A program made the translations under genes and the position numbers. 64,000 nucleotides of DNA. Source: a virus. Its lineage: Duplodnaviria > Caudoviricetes. The stretch spans positions 1-64,000 of IMG/VR virus record IMGVR_UViG_3300020045_004441. One strand, 5' to 3'. Under the pieces are notes generated by a model. It saw nothing but the letters and a program-made list of their open reading frames with translations. It was not told the DNA's origin and ran no database searches. This document shows positions 1-56,426 of this stretch, piece by piece; the first letter of the stretch is position 1; the number at the start of each line of letters is the position of its first letter.

Positions 1-3000
1 TAGGATTAGAATTTGAGCCTTATGGTGGTATTAAATCTGCTGATGAAGGTATGACTTCTTATGATCTTAATGATATACCAGAAGCTAGAGCAACTCAACA
101 GTCAGGATTAGAATTAACTGGTAAGGCTTTAGGTCAAGCTGTTAATGAATTAACTCTTGGAACCTTCGAGGCTGCTGGCTATTTACTGGATGCTCCAGGA
201 ATTTATAATGCTGTTGCTGGCAATGAAGGTGAATTTGACAACTTCTTTTCTAAAATATTCAGAGATGTAAAAGAGAATATCAATGAGAAGTATTTGCCAA
301 TATATCAAACTCACGCAGCTGAGAATGGCTCAATATTTGACGCCACATCTTTAGCAGCTAACTCAACTAGTTTGGCCGCATCATTAACTTTAATGATACC
401 AGCTCTTGGTGTTGCTAGAGGTCTTAATATTGCCGGTAAACTTGTTGGTATGGGAGCAAAAACCATTGCTTTAACTGAAGCAGTTGGAGCAGGTCTTGCA
501 TCTAGGCACACAGAGAATACCATGGAGGGTCAGCAGTATCTTAAACAATATACTGAAAAGAACAAGCAAGATTTAGCTCCTAAATATCAAGAGATGGCTG
601 AGGCCGAGATGGCTAACTTGCCATTAGTAATGCCACCAAATGAATATGGATTTTCACCATATTCTCAGGAAGATAGAGTTAAAGCTGAATCAGCTATTTT
701 AAATAAATATAAAACTCAGTTAGAATCCGAAGCTTCTCAAATGGCAGCTAAAGGAGCAAATAGAGTATATGCTGCTGATGGAGCATTAGCTGTTGTTGAT
801 GTACTGCAATACATGCCTCTCTTTAAAGGGTTTGGAAATGTACTTAAAGGTGTTAAGTTTTCTAAACCGGCAGAAACTGCATTTCAAATGGTTTCTGAGG
901 CTGGAGAGGAAGGATTCCAGCAGGGTAATCAAATGGAAGCATACGAGTCTACAAAGGCTGGTATAGATATGTTTGGGTCTGGTTATTCAGAGCGTCTTGG
1001 AGAATATCTTAAAGATAAAGATATGAAGATGAATGCTTTCTGGGGAGCTATGGGTGGTGGTGTATTCGCTGCTGCTGGGCCAATCGCCAAGAAAGCTGTT
1101 GATTCATACACAGATATAGATCTTACTAGAAAACGTGCTGCATTACGTAATGATGTAGATGCGTTCAATAAGATTGATGACGATATTAAAACCGATTTGA
1201 TATTTAAACATGCCAAGCGCGGTAGATTAGATAAACTATCTGCCGATATGGATGCTCTAGATCAATCTTTAGACGATCAGAATTGGAATGAAATTGGTAT
1301 TACCAAAGAAGAAGCCCAAGCTAAAATTAAATTATTCAAAGAAGATATTGCCTTTGCTAATGAACAGAAGGCTATTATAGATTCAAATCCAAACTTTAAG
1401 GATCATAAAGATGCTGCACTAGATTTTCTAAATGTAAAATTGAAAGCCAGGAATAATGGCAAGCAAATTAAAGATTTAAATACATCTCTAACATATCTAT
1501 ATAGAGAGATTCTAGATAATGGTGAGTTAGATTCTGGATTACTTGAGATTAAAAAACTACAAGACAATTTAAATGCGTTTAAAGAGATTAAATCTAATTT
1601 AACTAATATTCCTTCATTTAAGAAAGATAAGTCTCTCAAAGAGGCTACAAATGGCAAATTAGAGATCAATATTGGTCTATTGCAATCAAAACTTAATGAT
1701 GCAATAACTTCATACAAAGAAAGTAATCCAACTGTAGATATTAATACTGCAATCAAGACTGTTAACGATCCTAAGATTGCACAAAAATATAATAGATTAA
1801 AAGAATTACAGATTGTCAACGATGATGTTGTCAAGCCTACATTGGCTGCATATGAAAAAGCTTCTGTTATTAAGGAGAAGGATGCTAAATTAAAAGAAGA
1901 TCAAGCTAATGTAAATAGAGCTACCGTTGTTGAGGATGTAGTAAATGCTACAACCGAAGAAGATGTTGATGCTGTATTAGAATCTACACCAGAGGAAAAT
2001 ACAGATGATGCTATCAATGCTATAAATAAAAAAGCTGAGGAAGAATCTATTGATGCACCAGACACTCCAGATCTTAGATATGTAGGCAGACCAAATCTAT
2101 TCACTAAAGAGATGGGTGATTTAAATACTCATGTTATTGGCGAATATAACAATCAACTCACAGATACTACTGAGTCAGAATTAGCCGCAATAATAATGTC
2201 AACAAATGCAGAAGAGTTCAATAAAGCTTACATGGATTTATATAATCAATCTAAGCAGAATCTTGATGCAGCAAAGTTATTTGATGTTATGCAGAGGTTT
2301 TATGAAAATATTGGCAAGTCTAAAACAGATTTAGCTGATTCAAAGAATGTCAAAACTGATGGCGAGCATCAAATAGATGAATTTGAAGATACTGTAATTT
2401 CAGATTTTCATCCTACCGATAAGAAATCATCTGATATTGGTTATTTGCCAGTAGATGAATTTATCGCACCAACTCAAGGTATCTCTCCAAATAGAACAGC
2501 AATTCGTCAGTTTACTATAACTAAAGCTGGCAATAAAACCGTAATTAAAAGAGTTGATGGTGTTGCTGAATTAGACTTTGTGGCTAAGCAGATGCCTATT
2601 GATTGGGATTACGTTAACGACTCTAAGTCAGTAGCTGCTGGATCAGAAGTGTATTTTACTGTTAATCTTAATGATACTATTAGCACTAAAAAGACTGACT
2701 ATCATAAGAAATTGCAAGGTGAAGATTTCATCCACGCATCACAAATATTAATTGCTCAGAAAGATGCTGCTGGCGTAGAACACATTATATCTGCATTACC
2801 AATATATCAAGGGAGTAATGTTACGGAGAATGGCTTTAAACTTAAAGCGCTTAGGGAGCAAATTTGGCAAGGAGTTAAATCTTCTGGTCAAAAATTAGGC
2901 ACTTATAATTCTGGTATAACAACCAAGGTTACTAAGAAGTACTCTGGAATGCTGTTAATATCTAATACTAAGAATAATCCTCATGAAGTATTAAAACCTG

Positions 3001-6000
3001 GTGAGAAATTAGTTCTAGGTATTGCTAAGAATATTAATGGCAAAACAACTATTGATGCTGGTAAAAACGTTGATGCTGAATATAGTGGCATTGAAGTAGA
3101 TAATTCTAATGATGGTGGTATCTTTATTTTACTTAGAGGCACTAATGGTAGAATTATACCAGCCAGATGCTTCACTGCACAATTACAGAGATTTCCAGAG
3201 CTAATGGCTCAGGCTAAGAAGTTACTTGCTGAAACTAACAAAGATAATTGGGCTGTCAATAGAGAACAACTCCGTAAAATAGTGTATATAGATTATAATT
3301 ATATACCAAAAACCGATTCATTTGAATTGCGTGATAAGTCTGGTAATGTAACTACATTTAATAAAGATGGTTTGGATGCTATTCTTAGAACTAAAATAGT
3401 TCAGGTTGCGTCTAGTGAAATTAATCGTGGTAATTATAATGAAACTATCTCTAAACAAGGTAGACTCAAGACTGATATAACTCCTGGCAATCCTATTGTT
3501 AATTCAAACTTTGAATTCTCATTAGATTATCAAATGCCAGAGCAAAAGACTGAGACTACTAAAATCTCAATTAATGAAGCATTATCCTCTGATGAAGCTA
3601 GAGCTATTATTGGTGATGAATTTAGTGGTATTCCAACCATTTCTCCACAGCCTAAATTAATTGAAAACAATAATCTTCCAACTGAAGAACCTGAAATTCC
3701 AGATAGTTTTGAGGATTTCGATAATCCACTTGGAGATAATAATATTACACCAACTAGACTTAAAGTTGCATCTAATAAAGAGTTTTACCAAAAATGGGAT
3801 GAACTTAAAGAAACTAAGTGGTTTAAAGATAGATTTGATGAATCATTAATAGATACAGATAAATTCAGAGATGGATTAATTAACGTTTCTAAGAATGGTG
3901 GTATTCAAGCTTATGGTATGTTTAAAAATGCCGTGGCTTATATTAGTGGTGCAGCACAGACTGGCACTACATATCATGAGGCATTCCACGTAGTATTCAG
4001 TTTATATTTAAATGAGGCCCAAAGATCTCAGTTGCTTAAGGAGAATGCTAATTTAGGCAAGACTAATGTAGAGATTGAAGAATCCATTGCTGACAAGTTC
4101 ATGGATTACGTTAGATCTGAAGAGTTAGACAAAGGTGGTCTAGGTAAACAAATAGTAGATTTCTTTAAACAACTCTACTATATGATTAAGTCCAAGATTA
4201 CCAATGATTTAACTTTAGATCAAGTATTCTTTCAGGCTCAGCACAAGATGTATAAGAAGTCTCCATTTGCTAGAAATGTAGATAACTTTAAGGTTGTTAG
4301 ATATAGCATTGCAAATATGACTCCATATGAAGCCCAGCGCAGAGCTGTTGCTTTATCTGACGAGATGCGTAAGGCTTTAGATTCATATATTGAGCAAAAT
4401 CCAGATTTAAATAATACTCCTAGAAAGGATGCTATTGCTGGAATGCAACACACTAATGATAAGGGCGTTAAATTCTCTGGATTAGATATGCTTGCACTAA
4501 AGTCTAGGGCAGAACTCATTAAAATATATAACAGTGGCACTTTAGATGCAACGCAGAAAACTTCTATGGCTAAGATGATTAAAGAATTCATCTCTATGGA
4601 TGCTAGTGGTCAAGTTGTATTTGGAGAACTTGCTAGAAAATCATTGTTGCAATTTGCTAAGAATGAAGGGCTTCGTATTAGATTATCATCTAAGGAGATA
4701 TTCAGCTCTATAGATTCAACTGAAACTGATCCAGTAAATGATTTATTTGAGGAAGATACTCAAGCTGAAGGATGGCAAATATCTACCGAGAATGTGTCTC
4801 ATAAGGAATCTCTATCTAATGAAGTCCGCAAAGAGCTTAGTTATATTCCGCAAACCGTAGAGGATGGATCTCCAGAATTAGATGATCTCGGCTTTATTAT
4901 ATATCAAGATTTTAACACTGTTTTTAGCGATTTACAGCGTGATCTAGCTAATAGCGTAGATTCTGTTGAGATGATGGAGAAACTGGCTGAAACGGTCAAT
5001 AATAAGCCTTATTTGACAGATATATACAATAAAATAAACACTGATTTAAATCTAAGGACTAAATTCTTTGTTAACTTCCAATTGTCACATGTAGATTACG
5101 TTACGGTTCGCCAGAGAAAACAATATATACCACCAACAATTAAAGGAGCTAAAGGTACTTACAGTTATCAATATCATATATTCTCATCAAATAGAAATGG
5201 CGTTAAGAATATCTTGGTTGATGAATGGAAGGATAATTCTGTTGATCCAGCATTTAATAAAACTGTTAATAAAGATGGTTCTATTAATATGTCTGAAGTT
5301 GCTAAAGTTAAAACTCAGTGGGATAAATTAACTGCAATTCTTAGGAATAAAGATAATTATGGCCCAAGTGAAACTAAGCTGATGGCTAATATCCTAAATC
5401 ATATTGGAATAACTATTACAGTTAAAGACCTTAATGATTTAAATAAAAACTTTACTTCAGCTAATGGAAAAATAACTTACGGTAAGACTAAAATTAATAC
5501 ACTTAAATTTGAGTTAGACAAGATTGTTAATAGACTTTCTTTGGGTGAAAATCCATTTAGTTCAACATCATATGAATCAGAAGCTATTGATAATGTAGCT
5601 AAAACCATATCTAAATTTAGACATGAGCTCATGGAATCATCATTTAGAAATGGCGAGAATAAAACTATGTATGCTCACCAGACACCAACATTCCTATCAA
5701 GATCAATTCAGCAATTTAAAGGCAAAAATTGGGAAGATAGAATTGCTTGGTATCAACAAGATGTATTTTATAGAGACTCTGCTTGGTTAAATGAACTTAA
5801 AGAGATGGAGTCTCGTAATGAATTTGGTTTTATCGAAATAGATTCTATTAATTACGATAATAATAGTGATGGTATTAGATACACTAAAATGGCTCCTAAA
5901 GACTTTGAAAATACAGCTGTTAATATGTATTTCAATAATGGAGATAAAAACTATGTGTATTATAAATTCCCAGTAGTATCTGACGCACCAAAGATGCCAT

Positions 6001-9000
6001 TCATCAAATTCAGAAGGTTATCAACTGATCAAGTTGTGGACAAGCTATATGATGTATATCGTCAGGAATGGGCTAGGATTAATAGTATTAAAGAACGCGA
6101 ATCTTTACGTGCTGAATATATTAAAAATGGTCAACCGATTCCAGATGAGCTTAAGGTAATTAAGAATTACGATCACGAAAAGTCAAAACGATTCTTATTG
6201 CTGCCATTTTTAAATAATGGTAATCCACGAAAAGCTGTAGGCTCACAAGATGCAACTGCAATTAAGAGTGCAATAAAGGTTTGGATGGAATCTGAATCTC
6301 AAAAGGATTATGATCGTTTGGTTAAACTTGAAGTTCTTGGTAAAGATGCTGACGGTTCTGTTAGATATGATTCTAGAATAGATGCTTCTTGGGGTAATGA
6401 TAAAGCATTCCATAAAGATTATTTTTATAACTCGGTTTTAGCCAATAGTCAAATGATGTCAATCTTCTCTGGAGATCCAGCTTTCTACAAGGCAGATAAA
6501 GGAGATAAATTTCCATCTATATACAGCCGTACTGTTGACTACCAAAAGCGTAACAAACAGAATGTATCACCAAAGACTGTTATTGATGTTAATGCTATTG
6601 TTAACTTAACTGAATCGCAAGCTAAAACTGAAGGTAAAACACAATTAAGTGTTAGCCCATTCTATAATACAATATATGTTAAAGATAGGGAGATTGTTTC
6701 ATATAATAGAGATTCAATAAAAGATGGTCTACTAGATAGCGGGACAGACGAATTTAATGCGTTTAAGATAGCTGCTGAATATGGGTTTGCTAATTACTTT
6801 ACGGTCATTATCGACGGCAATACCAGCGAGTTTAAATCAGAACGTGATGCTCAAATTTTCGCAACCGCCAATAAATCTAAGGTCAATAGGTTTGCTGAAA
6901 CTTCAGATGGGCAATACTTTTCGTCAAAGGAAATCAACGTCACTGATGCCCAAGCATACATAACGCTTCCTAGATATAGGGAGATTATGGTTGGATTAGG
7001 TAGATGGACTACTAAATTACAAGATTTATATCCAAGATTATTAGATGGAACCGCATCTGGCAAGGAATTGCTTATGGTTATGCAACCTATTAAACCATTC
7101 TATTTTGGTCATAGCAAGGTTGGTAATCTAGTTGTTCCTACACAAAATAAGAATTCTGAGTATTTATTATTGCCACAATTGATCAAACAATCACCTGAGT
7201 TACAAAAACTCTATGATCACATGATTAATAATAATATCAGTTCAGCTAACTTTAACTCTGCTGTTAAAGCCGGAGAATTTGGTGCTCAGCCACTAGAAAA
7301 TATAGAGAATGCTTCTGTACATGTGTTAAACAATGCTGATTATGGATTACAGCAAGAAACACCTGAGCATCATATTGACTCACGTAGTCTTATTGGTAGT
7401 CAGATTAGAAAACTTTCTATTGCAGACATCAGTAAAGATGCTAAGTTTGATCTATATGGAAAACCATTCACTAAACAACAATTATTAGATCTATATCATG
7501 ACATTACATCAACTGATCTTGAGGAAGATTACAATAAGATTGCAGACAGATTTAGTAGTGTTGAGAATATACAGGACTTATTGTTTGCTGAGATCATTGA
7601 TCGCGACATGGGCGAAGAGCGTGAGAAAGCTGTTGAACTAGTAGACAGAGAAAATAAAGTTACTGGATTAATGGAGAAAGTATTTAACTTGCCATTATTT
7701 CATCCATATCACGCTAAGAGTAATGAGAGTTTAATGAACTCTGTATTCAAGAATAATATTACTAAGCAAAAAATTAAAGGTGGTGCATTCGTACAGGTAA
7801 GTGCATTTGGATTCGATAAGAGTCTTAAACTTAATATCAAGGATGGTAGATTGGTTTCTGCTGAATGTAAATTGCCTTGGTGGTCTAAGAAGTATTTTGA
7901 GCCAATGCTTGACGAGAATGGTCAGCTTGATATAAATAAAGTCCCAGAGAATCTACGTGAGATGATTGGCTATAGGATTCCTACTGAGGATAAATATTCC
8001 ATGCTTCCACTTATTGTAACTGGATTTTTACCTGCAAGTGCTGGTGGAGCTGTTATGCTACCAATGGAAATCACCACAATATCAGGTAGTGACTTTGATA
8101 TTGACAAGATGTATATTATGATGCCAGAGTGGGAGACCTCTGAGGATGGTAAAGATATACGCAAGGTTCAATATGATTTAAATGCAGAAGAATTACAATC
8201 CAAAGAAGCTCGCAATAATGCCAAAATAGACATCATTAGAGCTGTTTTAACGCACTCTGATACATTTGCTAAGATATTTAAGCCTGGTGGATTCCCAACG
8301 CTCTCAGAGCTTGCAGATAGGGTTCTTAAGCTCGAAGGCAAGGCTGATGAGATGCTACCAATGACACTACCATCAACACAGGCTGAGTTATTTAATCGGA
8401 ATATGACTGGCAAGGCTCTGATTGGGATATTTGCTAACCATAACACAAGTCATGCAATATTGCAGAATACCAAGATTGAATTTGCTAATCCAATATCATT
8501 TGATGGTGTTAACTTAAATTCATTACATGAGATTACAAATGCTAATGGTGACTTCATATCTAGAAACGTAGCCGAATGGTTGGCTGCTGTTGTAGATAAT
8601 GCTAAGAATCCATTGAGTGCATTTATAAACGTAAATACATATACTGCTGACGTTGCTGCAACTTTAACTAGGCTTGGTTATCCTCTAGAAACTGTTGTTG
8701 GATTCTTATCACAACCAATATTAAAAGAATTCTCAAATAGATATTTCAATAATGGTGCAAATCGTCAGGCTGAAATCAAAATTACAAAAGAATTAACAAC
8801 GCTATTTGCTGCTGCTAATTTTCAAGCAGAAGAAATAAAAGAAATAACTACTGATCAATTATTTAAAAATATTGAATCTGGAGAGTTGTTTAACAAGAGC
8901 CAATGGGATGTATTTAATACATTTATTCGAGTTAAAGAACAATCTACTGCACTTGCTGATTTAGTTAGAGCAACTAGAGCTGACACTAAAGGTGCTGGCC

Positions 9001-10442
9001 CAACTTTATCTGAGAATGATAAATTACTTAGACTTAGAACTCAGGTGTTGACTAATCAAGCATTAACTGGTGTGCAGGAATTGTTTGATGGCAAGGTTTA
9101 TCCAATGGAAAAAGCTTTTACAGAATTTGGCGTAGAAAAACCTACAGAGATATTATCCAAATACTTCCCATGGTTTAAGCCAGCCTGGAAAGGTGTTAAA
9201 GATAGAATCGAAGGTAATCTTAATGGTAAACAATTATCTGTTAAGCAAATAGAGCAGATTAATTATGAATTATTGGGATATGCTGCTAGCGGATTTGAAT
9301 TCTTTGACGGTAGTGATCGTGCTGATATTATTAACAATATGGCAAAGAAATTATATGCTATTAAAGAGAAATATCCTAAAGAATTTGCAGAGAACTATTT
9401 CTTAAATAAATTGATTGTTAAGTCTGATGAGAAATATCCCAATAGACCCAAAACTATCAACTTTAAGAATACAGGTAGTTTAACTGAGCAAGATAAACAG
9501 CAAGTTAAAGAGAATTGGTTACATTTGCTTCGTGATGATAAATTCAGTACTTTTGCAAAAGAGTTGATTAAATATTCATTCTACTCTGCTGGATTTCAGA
9601 TTACGCCAAATTCATTTAATCATTTAATACCAGTAGATTTCTATAGTAATTTAGAAATGACTGTAGCTGGAGAGAATGGAAAACCAGTGGTTGTTACATT
9701 TAATGAATATCTAGATAAAACTATGGCAGAAGCTGAATCTAAATCAATATTGAATCCATTCATAGAGCAATTTTATAAGAATAATTCAGATGATTCAAGT
9801 TTTGTGCCAATGGTTGATACTGATAAATTTAGCAACATAACTGGTGGTATTAATTATCTTAAAGGAAAACCTGCTTATTTTGAAGTTAACGCAGCAGATA
9901 AATCAACAACTAATGATTTCGTAATTAAGATTGAAGAGAAGGTGGCTACATTTAGTCCATTTGTTTCAATGAAAGAAAAAGGCGTTGTTTATCTGTATAA
10001 AGCAAATCAAGTAAGTAATATGAAAGCTGTTTATACTTTAACAAATAAACTTGGAGTTCCAAATCAAGTGCTAGAGTATATTAAGAATGGCATTGATAAG
10101 AGTGCAATTACTGAGAATAATCCATTTATAGGATTCACTGAAGCGGATGTAACTAATGCAATTCCAGAGACTAAGGCTAAAATTGAAGAGCAAGCTCAAC
10201 CGGAAGTTAATACTAATACAAAGCCCATAGACGAGTACTCTGAAATAACAGAATCGGTTGACCAGAGAGATATTGATACATTTAATGAATTGAAAGCTAA
10301 AATAATTGAATCTGAACTAACAAAAAAACAGATTGATATACTTAATCAATATAATAAATCAATAGGTGATTTGGTATTGATTGAAAATGACGTTAAATTA
10401 TCAAGAGAAAATATTGGAATACTAAAACAATTAGATTGTTAA
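1..10442 (+). CDS. Virion-packaged multisubunit-type RNA polymerase polyprotein (crAss-like, phi14:2 gp66-like); probably 5'-truncated by the window
   Basis: 3463-aa ORF from 51; the frame is also open from base 3 to 50 (GLEFEPYGGIKSADEG). Catalytic motif GSDFDIDK at 8085-8108, plus GYRIPTEDKYS and a zincin HEAFH motif at 3975-3989. Confidence 0.93.
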   Translation, partial: GLEFEPYGGIKSADEGMTSYDLNDIPEARATQQSGLELTGKALGQAVNELTLGTFEAAGYLLDAPGIYNAVAGNEGEFDNFFSKIFRDVKENINEKYLPIYQTHAAENGSIFDATSLAANSTSLAASLTLMIPALGVARGLNIAGKLVGMGAKTIALTEAVGAGLASRHTENTMEGQQYLKQYTEKNKQDLAPKYQEMAEAEMANLPLVMPPNEYGFSPYSQEDRVKAESAILNKYKTQLESEASQMAAKGANRVYAADGALAVVDVLQYMPLFKGFGNVLKGVKFSKPAETAFQMVSEAGEEGFQQGNQMEAYESTKAGIDMFGSGYSERLGEYLKDKDMKMNAFWGAMGGGVFAAAGPIAKKAVDSYTDIDLTRKRAALRNDVDAFNKIDDDIKTDLIFKHAKRGRLDKLSADMDALDQSLDDQNWNEIGITKEEAQAKIKLFKEDIAFANEQKAIIDSNPNFKDHKDAALDFLNVKLKARNNGKQIKDLNTSLTYLYREILDNGELDSGLLEIKKLQDNLNAFKEIKSNLTNIPSFKKDKSLKEATNGKLEINIGLLQSKLNDAITSYKESNPTVDINTAIKTVNDPKIAQKYNRLKELQIVNDDVVKPTLAAYEKASVIKEKDAKLKEDQANVNRATVVEDVVNATTEEDVDAVLESTPEENTDDAINAINKKAEEESIDAPDTPDLRYVGRPNLFTKEMGDLNTHVIGEYNNQLTDTTESELAAIIMSTNAEEFNKAYMDLYNQSKQNLDAAKLFDVMQRFYENIGKSKTDLADSKNVKTDGEHQIDEFEDTVISDFHPTDKKSSDIGYLPVDEFIAPTQGISPNRTAIRQFTITKAGNKTVIKRVDGVAELDFVAKQMPIDWDYVNDSKSVAAGSEVYFTVNLNDTISTKKTDYHKKLQGEDFIHASQILIAQKDAAGVEHIISALPIYQGSNVTENGFKLKALREQIWQGVKSSGQKLGTYNSGITTKVTKKYSGMLLISNTKNNPHEVLKPGEKLVLGIAKNINGKTTIDAGKNVDAEYSGIEVDNSNDGGIFILLRGTNGRIIPARCFTAQLQRFPELMAQAKKLLAETNKDNWAVNREQLRKIVYIDYNYIPKTDSFELRDKSGNVTTFNKDGLDAILRTKIVQVASSEINRGNYNETISKQGRLKTDITPGNPIVNSNFEFSLDYQMPEQKTETTKISINEALSSDEARAIIGDEFSGIPTISPQPKLIENNNLPTEEPEIPDSFEDFDNPLGDNNITPTRLKVASNKEFYQKWDELKETKWFKDRFDESLIDTDKFRDGLINVSKNGGIQAYGMFKNAVAYISGAAQTGTTYHEAFHVVFSLYLNEAQRSQLLKENANLGKTNVEIEESIADKFMDYVRSEELDKGGLGKQIVDFFKQLYYMIKSKITNDLTLDQVFFQAQHKMYKKSPFARNVDNFKVVRYSIANMTPYEAQRRAVALSDEMRKALDSYIEQNPDLNNTPRKDAIAGMQHTNDKGVKFSGLDMLALKSRAELIKIYNSGTLDATQKTSMAKMIKEFISMDASGQVVFGELARKSLLQFAKNEGLRIRLSSKEIFSSIDSTETDPVNDLFEEDTQAEGWQISTENVSHKESLSNEVRKELSYIPQTVEDGSPELDDLGFIIYQDFNTVFSDLQRDLANSVDSVEMMEKLAETVNNKPYLTDIYNKINTDLNLRTKFFVNFQLSHVDYVTVRQRKQYIPPTIKGAKGTYSYQYHIFSSNRNGVKNILVDEWKDNSVDPAFNKTVNKDGSINMSEVAKVKTQWDKLTAILRNKDNYGPSETKLMANILNHIGITITVKDLNDLNKNFTSANGKITYGKTKINTLKFELDKIVNRLSLGENPFSSTSYESEAIDNVAKTISKFRHELMESSFRNGENKTMYAHQTPTFLSRSIQQFKGKNWEDRIAWYQQDVFYRDSAWLNELKEMESRNEFGFIEIDSINYDNNSDGIRYTKMAPKDFENTAVNMYFNNGDKNYVYYKFPVVSDAPKMPFIKFRRLSTDQVVDKLYDVYRQEWARINSIKERESLRAEYIKNGQPIPDELKVIKNYDHEKSKRFLLLPFLNNGNPRKAVGSQDATAIKSAIKVWMESESQKDYDRLVKLEVLGKDADGSVRYDSRIDASWGNDKAFHKDYFYNSVLANSQMMSIFSGDPAFYKADKGDKFPSIYSRTVDYQKRNKQNVSPKTVIDVNAIVNLTESQAKTEGKTQLSVSPFYNTIYVKDREIVSYNRDSIKDGLLDSGTDEFNAFKIAAEYGFANYFTVIIDGNTSEFKSERDAQIFATANKSKVNRFAETSDGQYFSSKEINVTDAQAYITLPRYREIMVGLGRWTTKLQDLYPRLLDGTASGKELLMVMQPIKPFYFGHSKVGNLVVPTQNKNSEYLLLPQLIKQSPELQKLYDHMINNNISSANFNSAVKAGEFGAQPLENIENASVHVLNNADYGLQQETPEHHIDSRSLIGSQIRKLSIADISKDAKFDLYGKPFTKQQLLDLYHDITSTDLEEDYNKIADRFSSVENIQDLLFAEIIDRDMGEEREKAVELVDRENKVTGLMEKVFNLPLFHPYHAKSNESLMNSVFKNNITKQKIKGGAFVQVSAFGFDKSLKLNIKDGRLVSAECKLPWWSKKYFEPMLDENGQLDINKVPENLREMIGYRIPTEDKYSMLPLIVTGFLPASAGGAVMLPMEITTISGSDFDIDKMYIMMPEWETSEDGKDIRKVQYDLNAEELQSKEARNNAKIDIIRAVLTHSDTFAKIFKPGGFPTLSELADRVLKLEGKADEMLPMTLPSTQAELFNRNMTGKALIGIFANHNTSHAILQNTKIEFANPISFDGVNLNSLHEITNANGDFISRNVAEWLAAVVDNAKNPLSAFINVNTYTADVAATLTRLGYPLETVVGFLSQPILKEFSNRYFNNGANRQAEIKITKELTTLFAAANFQAEEIKEITTDQLFKNIESGELFNKSQWDVFNTFIRVKEQSTALADLVRATRADTKGAGPTLSENDKLLRLRTQVLTNQALTGVQELFDGKVYPMEKAFTEFGVEKPTEILSKYFPWFKPAWKGVKDRIEGNLNGKQLSVKQIEQINYELLGYAASGFEFFDGSDRADIINNMAKKLYAIKEKYPKEFAENYFLNKLIVKSDEKYPNRPKTINFKNTGSLTEQDKQQVKENWLHLLRDDKFSTFAKELIKYSFYSAGFQITPNSFNHLIPVDFYSNLEMTVAGENGKPVVVTFNEYLDKTMAEAESKSILNPFIEQFYKNNSDDSSFVPMVDTDKFSNITGGINYLKGKPAYFEVNAADKSTTNDFVIKIEEKVATFSPFVSMKEKGVVYLYKANQVSNMKAVYTLTNKLGVPNQVLEYIKNGIDKSAITENNPFIGFTEADVTNAIPETKAKIEEQAQPEVNTNTKPIDEYSEITESVDQRDIDTFNELKAKIIESELTKKQIDILNQYNKSIGDLVLIENDVKLSRENIGILKQLDC

Positions 10443-49500: not shown

Positions 49501-49790
49501 AGGAAACGTTCCTAATTAAGCTGCAATAGCAACCTCACGGAATAAATTGATAGTTTTGCCTGTTATGGCAATTAAATTCTACTCTAATCTACTAACATCG
49601 CTGTCAAAACCAGTCAGCCCCGTAAAACAATGAGTTATTGGTTCAATTAAATAAGTTATACTCATCCGTTCCATCTTTAACTCACTGTAAAACCGTACTA
49701 ACGCGACGGGTTAGCGCAACTCAATTGGCTTGAGCGAGTGGAGCTGAGGGGAATCGAACCCCTGTCCAAACAACTGTATAATTAGCATCA
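49478..49790 (-). ncRNA. ssrA: Circularly permuted two-piece tmRNA gene
   Basis: Acceptor piece (GGAC, T-arm AGGGG-TTCGATT-CCCCT, CAGCTCC-A, 49767-49739) lies upstream of the coding piece (GGGGCTGACTGGTTTTGACAGC from 49621). The acceptor stem has G3.U70. Tag ORF 49560-49516 is GKTINLFREVAIAA* after ATAACA. Confidence 0.9.
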
Positions 49791-49805
49791 AACGAATTTA
49801 ATTTG

Positions 49806-49885
49806 TACGCAGAGATGGATTTGAACCACCGATCTTTCCGTAGCCGTAGCCCGCCGGAGTGCTTTAACCGCTAAGCTATCTGCGA
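49806..49885 (-). tRNA. tRNA-like element with a 14-nt insert in place of the anticodon loop (no callable anticodon)
   Basis: Acceptor CGCAGA/TCTGCG, D-arm GCTT-AGCGGTTA-AAGC, T-arm GGTGG-TTCAAAT-CCATC; anticodon stem TCCG/CGGA enclosing GCGGGCTACGGCTA. Confidence 0.7.
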
Positions 49886-51092: not shown

Positions 51093-51193
51093 TAGCAATG
51101 GTTGGAATCGAACCAACATTACCCAATCTTACTATTAACGCATATCTATTCACTCGAAAGTACAAGAGGCTATTAATAATTTACATCACCGCC
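51093..51193 (-). ncRNA. Non-canonical tRNA-shaped element
   Basis: T-arm GTTGG-TTCGATT-CCAAC, acceptor GGCGGTG/CATTGCT (3 G.U pairs), 9-bp central helix; no D-arm or anticodon loop. Confidence 0.4.
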
Positions 51194-53763: not shown

Positions 53764-54209
53764 AATTAGTTATTTATAAGTTTGGCATGATTATTGTTAC
53801 GCGCGCGTACATTATCATATAGATATATTTAGTGCAATGCTCCGTGAATACTAAGAGCATTGCTAATGTCTAATAAGCCACATAGTCTCCTAGAGTCAAT
53901 GTGGTAATAATGTAACTCATCGCATGGCGCAAGATTTAATTGTTAATATATTGGTGCTAAATAGCGTCAAACATATCCTTAGACGAACTTGATGTATGCG
54001 AATTTATGAAGCATACAACTAGGGAGTCTTATAAGAGTATTATTAATTGTTATTGCAATACAGGACTATATCCCCTAAATATATGGATATAGATATTAAT
54101 TATAATAGAAGCGAATATCTAGCTTAAACTCGTCGGCCCGCAGATCATCTGCACTTAGTTTAATTTAATGCCACTAGTATATATATCGACAACTAGTATT
54201 CACTTAATA

Positions 54210-54350
54210 TTAATTCAAGGCTCGATTCTTCCGATGCCCTGGCAATCCAGCTTTAGCATATGGTGTAACCTTAGCTACCTTAGTGCTACTGAATAACTCT
54301 GACTGTACTCCAGCCATAATACGCTTGATTCTACGTGATTGTGATTGCAT
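54210..54350 (-). CDS. Basic micro-protein (46 aa, not in track)
   Basis: MQSQSRRIKRIMAGVQSELFSSTKVAKVTPYAKAGLPGHRKNRALN. Confidence 0.45.
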   Translation of the reverse strand: MQSQSRRIKRIMAGVQSELFSSTKVAKVTPYAKAGLPGHRKNRALN

Positions 54351-54536
54351 GATATAAATCTTTAGGTATTAATAAATAATGTCTATAATGGCTTGGTATT
54401 GTAATAATACAGGCTGCTGCAATGGCTTAATGGCGCTATTATAGTGGTTAGCTAGCCGATAGCATTTAAGTGCGGTAATCACACCTGTAATATTATATCT
54501 ATATACAGCACCTTGGTATATATAGATTATTATGTC

Positions 54537-54602
54537 CAACATTGGCACATCAACGACTGTTGATATTTAATTATACGATAGCAACCGTATTAACCAATGT
54601 TG
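54537..54602 (-). repeat. Structured repeat, copy 1 (three-way junction)
   Basis: Imperfect direct repeat of 54971-55036 with nested inverted repeats. Confidence 0.85.
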
Positions 54603-54670
54603 ATCCAGAAATATTATAGAGCCCTCAAGGTGATCAGCATTACGCGTTATTCAAGGGCTCTATTTAATTC

Positions 54671-54934
54671 TTAGCAAGGAATTGCCCTTACATATTTAAC
54701 GTCAATGTTTTGGCCGTCTTTGTTGAATGAATACTCAACATCTTCAAAGCGAAGGTTGCGATCCATTTCAGTGCCAACGATGGCTGCATCAGGTGTTGTT
54801 TCAGACTGTATAACGAACTCTCTGCCTTGGCATATGCCAAACAAAGCGTCCATTACAATCTCTTGACAACGGATGTTAGAACCGCCTGTGCGAGTCTTAG
54901 AAGCTGCTACTTGTAATACTTTAAACTTAGTCAT
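54671..54934 (-). CDS. Hypothetical early protein between the two structured repeats
   Basis: 87-aa ORF. Confidence 0.7.
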   Translation of the reverse strand: MTKFKVLQVAASKTRTGGSNIRCQEIVMDALFGICQGREFVIQSETTPDAAIVGTEMDRNLRFEDVEYSFNKDGQNIDVKYVRAIPC

Positions 54935-54970
54935 GATTGTATGTTTTAGATTGTTAGAGTTCAGTTATGT

Positions 54971-55036
54971 CAACATAGGCACATCAACTACTGTTGATAT
55001 TTAATTATGCAATAGCAATTGCATTAACCTATGCTG
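54971..55036 (-). repeat. Structured repeat, copy 2 (three-way junction)
   Basis: 434 bp from copy 1; differences in the stems are compensatory. Confidence 0.85.
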
Positions 55037-55445
55037 ATCTAGTTAGATAGATACTAGTGGGTGCTAGACTTATGAGTTATCTTACTGCTAGCACACTGTA
55101 TCATTAGCTGTGTTGTGTTGATATATTATTGGCGCTAATCCCAACAAACAACATCCGTGACTATACGTGGTCGCACGACAAACCCCATGGACTTACAACA
55201 TCAGTAAACTGATGAATGCCAAGAGTTAGTGAAGGTGAAAGATCCCCTTGCTGGCAGCTGATGAGAGCGATAATCTCAAAGACCCAGGGGTGATGCCCAA
55301 AGCGATAACGATGAGGGGGATCAGTGTGGTATTATCCCATCCTCTCATTAATATCCAAATTTTCAGAATTTTTATTATAAAATTTTTCAACTAAATTTTT
55401 AGTCATCTGACTATGTTTATAGTCAATTAGCCATGCTAAGATAGA

Positions 55446-55477
55446 TTTGGTAGTGTCAAAATAATGTTGTATATTTG
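55446..55477 (+). promoter_or_regulatory. Bacteroidetes-type promoter opening the plus-strand block
   Basis: TTTG-N20-TATATTTG. Confidence 0.75.
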
Positions 55478-55862: not shown

Positions 55863-56426
55863 ATGGGTTATCAAAATTACAGTAGAGGTAGAGAAAAGAA
55901 AGCTAGAGTATCAAAGTCCATCACTAGGGATTCGATGTTATTATTTAGACAAGAAGGCATCAAAAAATTACTGGGTATGGTTACGTCAGCAGCAGTAAAG
56001 GATTTTATATTGCAGAACGTAAGTAGCAAGAAGGATGACATTATTAATCGTTTTAGGGTTAATGCTCCAGGACTAGTGCAAAGTGCGGAGGCAAATCGTA
56101 ATGGAAATATTATTAATGCAACTCCACAGGAAATGAAGATGAAGATTATCATGAAAGAGCTTGGGGTTGTATATGAATTTCAGAAGGTTTATTATACTGG
56201 GATGACATATTATATTGTAGACTTCTTTTTGCCACATTATAACGTCGTAGTTGAATTAGATGGATCACAGCATTACGATGGATTTGCTAGGGAATACGAT
56301 GCACTAAGAACCGAAAATCTATTATATCTACACAAAATTAATAGGGTTATTAGATTTGATAATAAGGAGTTGATTGTAGATACTGATATTAAATCTAAAC
56401 TAACTAAAGAACTTAATATTAAATAA
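55863..56426 (+). CDS. DUF559/Vsr-like endonuclease
   Basis: ATPQE, YIVDFF, VELDGSQH, YDALR, VIRFDN. Confidence 0.8.
   Translation: MGYQNYSRGREKKARVSKSITRDSMLLFRQEGIKKLLGMVTSAAVKDFILQNVSSKKDDIINRFRVNAPGLVQSAEANRNGNIINATPQEMKMKIIMKELGVVYEFQKVYYTGMTYYIVDFFLPHYNVVVELDGSQHYDGFAREYDALRTENLLYLHKINRVIRFDNKELIVDTDIKSKLTKELNIK

Follow-up and report, generated by a model that had tools for sequence, protein, structure and literature searches.

An uncultured crAss-like phage has, at the head of its early region, a duplicated element that folds on itself, and this element raises the question of whether it is a promoter for the RNA polymerase that such a phage injects, or whether it works as a folded RNA in some other role. 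We study it in a stretch of 64,000 nucleotides (the window), positions 1 to 64,000 of IMG/VR record IMGVR_UViG_3300020045_004441, which is a 77-kb virus contig roughly 76% complete. One set of genes points left, between about 55.4 kb and 16 kb, and another points right, beginning at 55.86 kb. This gene orientation places the element at the head of the replication/early-type arm and on its coding strand, the minus strand, in an intergenic or leader position. The large terminase (TerL) is 43-47% identical to those of Crassvirales. A giant candidate virion-type RNA polymerase of 3463 aa (51..10442, plus strand) carries GSDFDIDKMY at residue 2681; DFDxD is given as a signature of crAss-type virion RNA polymerases in 10.1101/2020.03.07.982082. 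The start codons are not preceded by Shine-Dalgarno sequences and the leaders are A-rich, which fits a Bacteroidota host.

A repeat search identifies the element as two direct repeats of a unit of about 80 nts on the minus strand, at 54537-54608 (copy 1) and 54971-55042 (copy 2), that are 86% identical and 434 nts apart. RNA folding of the minus strand takes both copies into the identical three-way junction, with energies for the sense RNA of -25.9 kcal/mol (copy 1, z -4.5) and -28.0 kcal/mol (copy 2, z -5.0), and 0/200 shuffles fold as well as the real copies. The junction core of copy 1 (54536..54603, minus) includes hairpin B at 54573-54590 and hairpin A at 54547-54566; in the core of copy 2 (54970..55037, minus), hairpin B is found at 55007-55024 and hairpin A at 54981-55000. 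The closing stem has 9 Watson-Crick basepairs in both copies, 11 when the wobble pairs at its ends are included. Hairpin B has 7 basepairs and a UGCU loop in either copy. Hairpin A has 8 basepairs, and its loop is AGUC in one copy and AGUA in the other; as DNA, it is a palindrome with 8-bp arms and a 4-bp spacer, and the two copies of it are identical except for that one spacer base. The junction strands have lengths of 2, 6 and 0 nts, and together with the loop of hairpin B they are invariant between copies. A TCAAC...GTTGA motif appears twice per orientation in each copy. With no U tract 3' of it, the element does not qualify as a classical terminator. The preliminary description had drawn each of the two copies as a 9-bp closing stem with two hairpins, an arrangement that repeat search and folding bear out, and the stems and base swaps that it listed for the closing stem and for hairpins A and B are all correct on refolding. 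It had also placed copy 2 about 37 nts before the first early ORF. The spacing is 36 nts, measured from the end of copy 2 to the ATG at 54934; the label "first" is uncertain, because a weakly conserved frame of 54 codons (55226-55390, minus) lies upstream of that ORF.

The differences between the two copies respect the pairing. The copies differ at 10 positions over the 68-nt core, and 26/26 basepairs are formed in both. These 10 differences amount to three double changes (one U-A/A-U and two A-U/G-C), three one-sided A-U/G-U or U-A/U-G switches, and one loop change. In simulations, 10 random substitutions leave all 26 pairs intact in 0.02-0.3% of the trials, depending on the transition bias. 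A covariation shuffle control gives 70/500, and is a weak control when there are just two sequences. With only two sequences known, the case for covariation rests on the three double changes, which are few events.

The imperfections in the helices also distinguish the two strands. On the minus strand, five pair positions have a G.U in at least one copy and none has an A.C; read on the plus strand, those same positions are A.C. If imperfections were assigned to the strands at random, all of them would fall this way with a chance of 1 in 32 for the five positions, or 1 in 8 when only the three within helices are counted. The plus strand folds more poorly as RNA (-18.6 and -20.3 kcal/mol), which is 7-8 kcal/mol worse than sense. 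Under DNA energy parameters the strands are nearly equal, with -13.9/-14.9 versus -13.2/-13.1. The wobble pattern and the RNA energies thus favor the minus strand, but the DNA energies hardly tell the strands apart. Our best reading of these data is that a fold of one strand, modestly biased to sense, has been preserved by selection at intergenic/leader positions of the early arm.

To look for further copies, we built a covariance model (R1) from the two window copies, for which it reports 100.4 bits (copy 1) and 101.5 bits (copy 2). The 77-kb record includes exactly those two copies. R1 finds no copy outside the window in 1.26 Mb of 80 terminase-related crAss-like loci, only the window copies in 86 sources plus the full records of five relatives, and no copy at the head of the phage phi14:2, where the best match has 12.8 bits. 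For Rfam 15 at gathering thresholds, the whole window shows no match at either copy; with E-values up to 5, the 3-kb locus and four relatives show no Rfam match at the element or at the inserts that the relatives carry. This covariance-model and Rfam check, already suggested in the preliminary description, thus returns no related crAss-like copy and no known Rfam family. Exact patterns for hairpin A with the 3' arm, and for the loop of hairpin B with the junction, find nothing in viral contigs. In metagenome contigs, the first pattern has 0 matches and the second has six, all by chance (17 bits or less with R1). One 22-nt match to hairpin A in the prokaryote genome collection (L095:602-624) falls in a coding region of a Woesearchaeota MAG, has neither hairpin B nor a good closing stem, scores 25 bits with R1, and was judged to be chance. 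A nucleotide search of a phage collection with the 3-kb region gives no match. The best explanation is that the element is private to this strain.

Elsewhere in the window, Rfam calls a permuted tmRNA at 49516-49798 and an odd tRNA at 49806-49885. At 51093-51190 (minus) we also observe a tRNA-like element with 22.8 bits against a cutoff of 29, which has a good acceptor stem and T arm, and an aberrant middle of about 50 nts.

The closest relatives place the element in a very particular context. Between the two copies there is an ORF of 87 aa (54671..54934, minus) with no family match. This gene is found in four IMG/VR contigs (L003, L004, L005 and L006) at 83-99% amino acid identity, 99% being that of the L003 copy, and the element is absent from 4/4 of them. 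Copy 1 fills an 84-nt variable slot, slot 1 (54528..54611, minus), which by alignment and contig joints has a different sequence in each of the four relatives: four mutually unrelated inserts of 86-187 nts. Copy 2 fills an 85-nt variable slot, slot 2 (54962..55046, minus), where alignment and a contig joint show the element in no relative. At slot 2, L003 has just about 8 unrelated nts that replace the 85-nt insert, L006 has an unrelated 10-bp hairpin, and L004 and L005 have unrelated sequence upstream of the leader. More slots occur downstream, at 54413-54483 and 54083-54208. Metagenome contigs show the joints as well. The joint from 54527 to 54612/54617, with 103 other letters between, appears in 4/4 independent metagenome runs, the joint from 54961 to 55047 in one run (X4), and one contig bridges slot 1 at a junction of 6 shared letters. 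The sequencing runs all consist of contigs, and each has at most 18% of the sampled words; the joints alone are taken as evidence, and bins without cover and summed depths are left aside.

The sequences that flank the slots behave in the opposite way. Just downstream of slot 1, a non-coding linker of 44 nts (54484..54527, minus) is identical at 44/44 positions in three relatives and at 41/41 in L006. In L004, L005 and L006, 32/32 letters of the leader and start codon of the 87-aa gene (54930..54961, minus) are unchanged; L003 matches over a shorter part, at 29/29 letters. The gene between these two blocks varies by up to 17% in protein while both blocks stay identical across the five genomes. 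Scans with the linker and leader patterns retrieve the same four relatives only. Judged from these alignments, linker and leader are better candidates for the real early promoter/leader signals than the variable inserts are. Since the slots are empty or otherwise filled beside identical flanks in the relatives, the copies are dispensable and replaceable. As far as sequence comparison can tell, each copy is what happens to fill, in this genome, a hypervariable and dispensable slot flanked by ultra-conserved non-coding linkers. We also observe that the linker and the leader both open with a similar AATCTA...ATAC string.

Many of the sequences that occupy the slots in the relatives are also foldbacks, and the relatives' inserts have long, near-perfect terminal inverted repeats of 13-19 bp. 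Sense-strand foldbacks are found in inserts of L003 (z -3.8), L004 (z -4.4), site 2 of L006 (z -3.0) and slot 4 of L005 (z -3.4). The slot 1 insert of L005 folds far better antisense (z -4.95 vs -1.45), the slot 1 insert of L006 does not outdo its shuffles (z -1.1), and no structure is seen in several inserts. The antisense insert and the unstructured ones mean that there is no uniform rule for the contents of the slots. The slot 1 insert of L003 (L003:3318-3438, plus; z -3.8) also forms a three-way junction: a long stem closes it, and of its two hairpins one abuts that stem. In sequence, this insert is unrelated to the element of the window.

Two further hairpins lie next to the slots. The first, of 13 bp, comes just after the 87-aa ORF (54616..54663, minus; z -3.2), is present in all five genomes, and is followed by AUAAUAUUUC with a weak U tail; it may be terminator-like or a 3' stabilizer. 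In L006, one C-to-T change in this hairpin introduces a G.U on the sense strand. The second is a bulged hairpin of about 15 bp upstream of slot 2 (55050..55102, minus), common to the window, L003 and L006 (z -1.5 to -2.5). Its apical loop varies, and the loop of L006 includes an extra nested hairpin. In that place, L004 has a different strong hairpin (z -3.9), and L005 has none that is significant.

Around slot 1 and downstream of it, a stretch of about 850 nts (53764-54611, minus) has no convincing gene and appears as a mosaic of conserved blocks and swappable inserts; it is reminiscent of the intergenic regions that phi14:2 transcribes abundantly and early as non-coding RNA. A 46-codon frame within it (54210-54350) becomes two frames in L005 and is missing in L006. 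We rejected a 59-codon GTG frame (54369-54548) as a gene, as it spans slots that vary in the relatives by lengths not divisible by three. On the other side of the early-region head, the stretch 55442-55477 (plus) has TTTG and then TATATTTG, with a spacing like that of the Bacteroidota -33/-7 promoter, and it faces the rightward arm, which starts with an endonuclease-like gene. That gene (55863-56426, plus) encodes a protein of 187 aa with weak PHROG matches to Holliday-junction resolvase, HNH and homing endonucleases. The protein adjoins the hypervariable foldback region, whose turnover could owe something to a structure-specific nuclease.

Is the element then a promoter? The N4 virion RNA polymerase, a T7-like enzyme, uses single-stranded DNA hairpin promoters that act on the template strand. 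Its promoters P1-P3 have a stem of 5-7 bp and a loop of 3 nts, and they are conserved among relatives. The element has in common with them that the DNA is structured, that it lies at the head of the early region, and that the phage injects its own RNA polymerase. But its stems are of 7, 8 and 9-11 bp and meet in a junction, both of its loops have 4 nts, its wobble bias favors the non-template strand (although the DNA energies of the two strands are nearly equal), the relatives do without it, and the polymerase here is of the crAss two-barrel type (DFDID motif), not T7-like. That the copies are structured promoters of the virion RNA polymerase, as the preliminary description had proposed, is disfavored, as four relatives that keep leader and linker letter for letter do not have the element. 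A specific promoter of that enzyme would be expected in strains with a letter-perfect downstream leader, and the element is not kept there; L003 has no element at site 2 despite a 99%-identical 87-aa gene. Host-type signals are absent as well: on the minus strand at the copies, a sigma-70 scan does no better than shuffles and there is no TAnnTTTG box of the Bacteroidota type, host-type promoters and terminators show nothing above background, and no repeated linear promoter box is found among the early upstream regions. The related two-barrel virion polymerase of P23-45 has promoters that consist of a conserved linear AT-rich motif (10.1101/2022.12.01.518664), and a motif of that kind would fit the letter-perfect linkers far better than the variable inserts. 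The element is probably an optional folded-RNA module rather than an early promoter.

A looser form of the promoter proposal would ask for structure only. The crAss-type virion RNA polymerase would enter or initiate at the element, and any extruded foldback just upstream of a conserved initial transcribed sequence would do; this, if true, would explain the missing sequence consensus. What is reported for phi14:2 agrees with it, as gp66 transcribes denatured or single-stranded DNA in vitro and the early transcripts share no upstream motif (10.1101/2020.03.07.982082). In the genomes analyzed here, both copies end about 10 nts before letter-perfect conserved blocks, slot 1 holds a stable foldback in 4/5 genomes (the one in L005 is antisense, and L006 is the exception), a hairpin sits upstream of the leader of the first gene in the window, L003, L004 and L006, and the minus strand has no host-type promoter. 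Such a site is difficult to reconcile with close relatives that do not carry the element, with L003 having no slot 2 insert, with an upstream region in L005 that is not significantly structured, with a wobble bias to the non-template strand, and with a P23-45 polymerase whose linear motif is the better match to the linkers (10.1101/2022.12.01.518664). The contigs of the relatives do not include the polymerase gene. We regard the proposal as doubtful. We find it quite improbable in its most general form, where the slots would hold interchangeable foldbacks that share hairpin extrusion only and would be structure-only entry sites for the polymerase before letter-perfect initial transcribed sequences; if true, that form would explain the lack of an early-promoter consensus in phi14:2.

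The reading that we tentatively prefer is that the element is an accessory foldback of about 80 nts that works as a sense-strand RNA module in early transcripts, with a role in processing, stability or insulation. Several results point to it: the z-scores of the fold, the differences that keep the pairs, the G.U pairs on the sense strand, the better folding of the sense RNA, the intergenic/leader position on the coding strand, and the copies having no host-type promoter. The relatives add to it, in that their replacement inserts are often sense-favored foldbacks and that the hairpin at 54616-54663 acquires its G.U in L006 on the sense strand. In phi14:2, which is also crAss-like, the intergenic regions at the genome head are abundant early non-coding transcripts (10.1101/2020.03.07.982082), and these too lend support to an RNA module. 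Of the two alternatives raised in the preliminary description, the second, a new cis-regulatory or non-coding RNA motif, is the one that survives in substance, with a fold that is real, differences that keep pairing, a favored sense strand and no Rfam family; from these we infer that the element is transcribed, that the folded RNA is its active form, and that it acts in processing or stability. Because the relatives do without the element, any role that it has is non-essential.

The module would fold within the early sense transcripts. With copy 2 upstream of the 87-aa ORF and copy 1 just past the conserved 3' hairpin of that ORF, it would bracket the ORF. Hairpin A abuts the closing stem with 0 junction nts between them, and the dot-bracket structure suggests that stacking of the two could give a nearly continuous helix of about 19 bp. 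A helix of this length would be a suitable substrate for RNase III-type enzymes, or long enough to stop exonucleases. The module could in this way punctuate, stabilize or insulate the early messages, as the early RNase III sites of T7 or the PeSL stem-loops of T4-type phages do.

The comparison with those systems has limits. The T7 early RNase III sites (R0.3-R1.3) are single bulged hairpins conserved among relatives; their sequence is free to vary so long as an irregular helix of about 20 bp forms, and the cut leaves protective hairpins. The element shares with R0.3-R1.3 that it would be folded RNA punctuation in the leader and between the early genes of a polycistronic transcript. It differs in being a branched junction that is absent in relatives, so that the likeness is one of geometry (an 11-bp stem plus an 8-bp hairpin). 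The PeSL cassettes of T4-type phages are conserved units in many copies, each with a strong sigma-70-like promoter and a terminator hairpin (Arbiol et al. 2010, PMC2839356). Like PeSLs, the element is a small non-coding structured unit in a hyperplastic early region, next to small accessory ORFs that it flanks; both mark points of insertion, deletion or replacement among related phages, with direct copies that bracket an ORF. Unlike PeSLs, which are the conserved part of their regions, the element is the variable part, has two copies, forms a three-way junction and comes without a recognizable promoter or U tract, and the conserved linkers beside it are not evident copies of each other. The early long non-coding transcripts of phi14:2 at the g004-g006 junctions (10.1101/2020.03.07.982082) come from a phage of the same kind and from ORF-poor stretches among the first early genes, but with no similarity to the element in sequence or by model, the parallel is in location only.

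The strain-level turnover of the slots also invites explanations in which the fold matters as DNA. The element could be a DNA-level foldback insert, a selfish palindromic element or a product of illegitimate recombination or template switching, copied from slot to slot; the inverted repeats would be kept as DNA, by a hairpin or cruciform or by templated correction of quasi-palindromes, with no RNA role. We see this as a possibility to be taken seriously, although an unlikely one. It would account for presence/absence and replacement polymorphism with sharp borders at both sites, for one unit at two different sites in one genome, for closing stems that resemble terminal inverted repeats such as those of the relatives' inserts, for the short direct repeats that flank the copies (ATAATA at slot 1, TAACT at slot 2), for the six shared letters at the contig joint across slot 1, for DNA folding that is similar on both strands, and for an insert in L005 that favors the opposite strand. 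Yet ATAATA and TAACT do not line up with where the homologous unit ends and give no consistent target-site duplication, which speaks against a MITE-like element, even though the closing stem can pass for its terminal inverted repeats. No transposase is found near the slots or among the proteins scanned, which cover part of the record. A mobile family would be expected to leave other copies, and the collections searched have none. Templated correction should have removed the G.T mismatches, and five persist, all on one strand. Integron attC sites were another DNA-level candidate: they are imperfect inverted repeats at the junctions of cassettes, specific to one strand, with a conserved structure and a variable sequence. 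In copy 1, the terminal GTTGGAC fits the GTTRRRY box and GATCAAC has one mismatch to RYYYAAC, but GATCAGC and GTTGACA of copy 2 fail; moreover, the cassettes here are mostly non-coding, and no integrase-family match is found among the proteins scanned (part of the record's ORFs). We rejected attC.

The element could also act as RNA away from its own transcript, as a small trans-acting non-coding RNA, for instance a decoy or mimic against host defense, of which a fast-turnover early accessory region would hold two diverged copies. Phages often place counter-defense functions at the head of the early region, which speaks for this explanation, as do a turnover of the slots by strain beside letter-perfect flanks, typical of accessory arms-race loci, and a sense-strand structure that is compact and stable and whose loops and junction do not vary. 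So does the abundant early non-coding RNA that phi14:2 makes at its genome head (10.1101/2020.03.07.982082). An independent RNA of this type sits less well with an element that has no recognizable promoter or terminator of its own and that resembles no known RNA in Rfam; its core pattern has no accepted exact match in the prokaryote genome collection, and no candidate target was identified. We hold this to be unlikely. Still further from what is observed is the reading of the element as duplex operators, an array that a dimeric DNA-binding regulator would bind at TCAAC/GTTGA half-sites in hairpin A and at the ends of the element. The two occurrences of TCAAC...GTTGA per orientation in each copy, and a hairpin A palindrome that is the same in both copies save for one spacer base, are what such an array would show, but the three symmetric changes in hairpin B would alter recognition by a protein and leave the fold as it is, the imperfections are all G.T on one strand, the relatives do not have the element, and no regulator gene is linked to it. 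An operator is thus highly improbable.

Taken together, these results describe an orphan structured motif that most likely serves as an accessory RNA module, not as an early promoter. As a two-copy feature of a single strain, its general importance is limited. If it does work as an RNA module, the non-coding head of crAss-like phage genomes, a poorly understood region, would gain an orphan three-way-junction motif. The architecture that surrounds the element, with letter-perfect linkers between slots that differ in every strain, may matter more than the element itself. Going by the pattern of linkers and slots, the real early control signals of these phages are probably in the linkers, and the linker/slot map shows how the early regions of these abundant, mostly uncultured phages get reshuffled.
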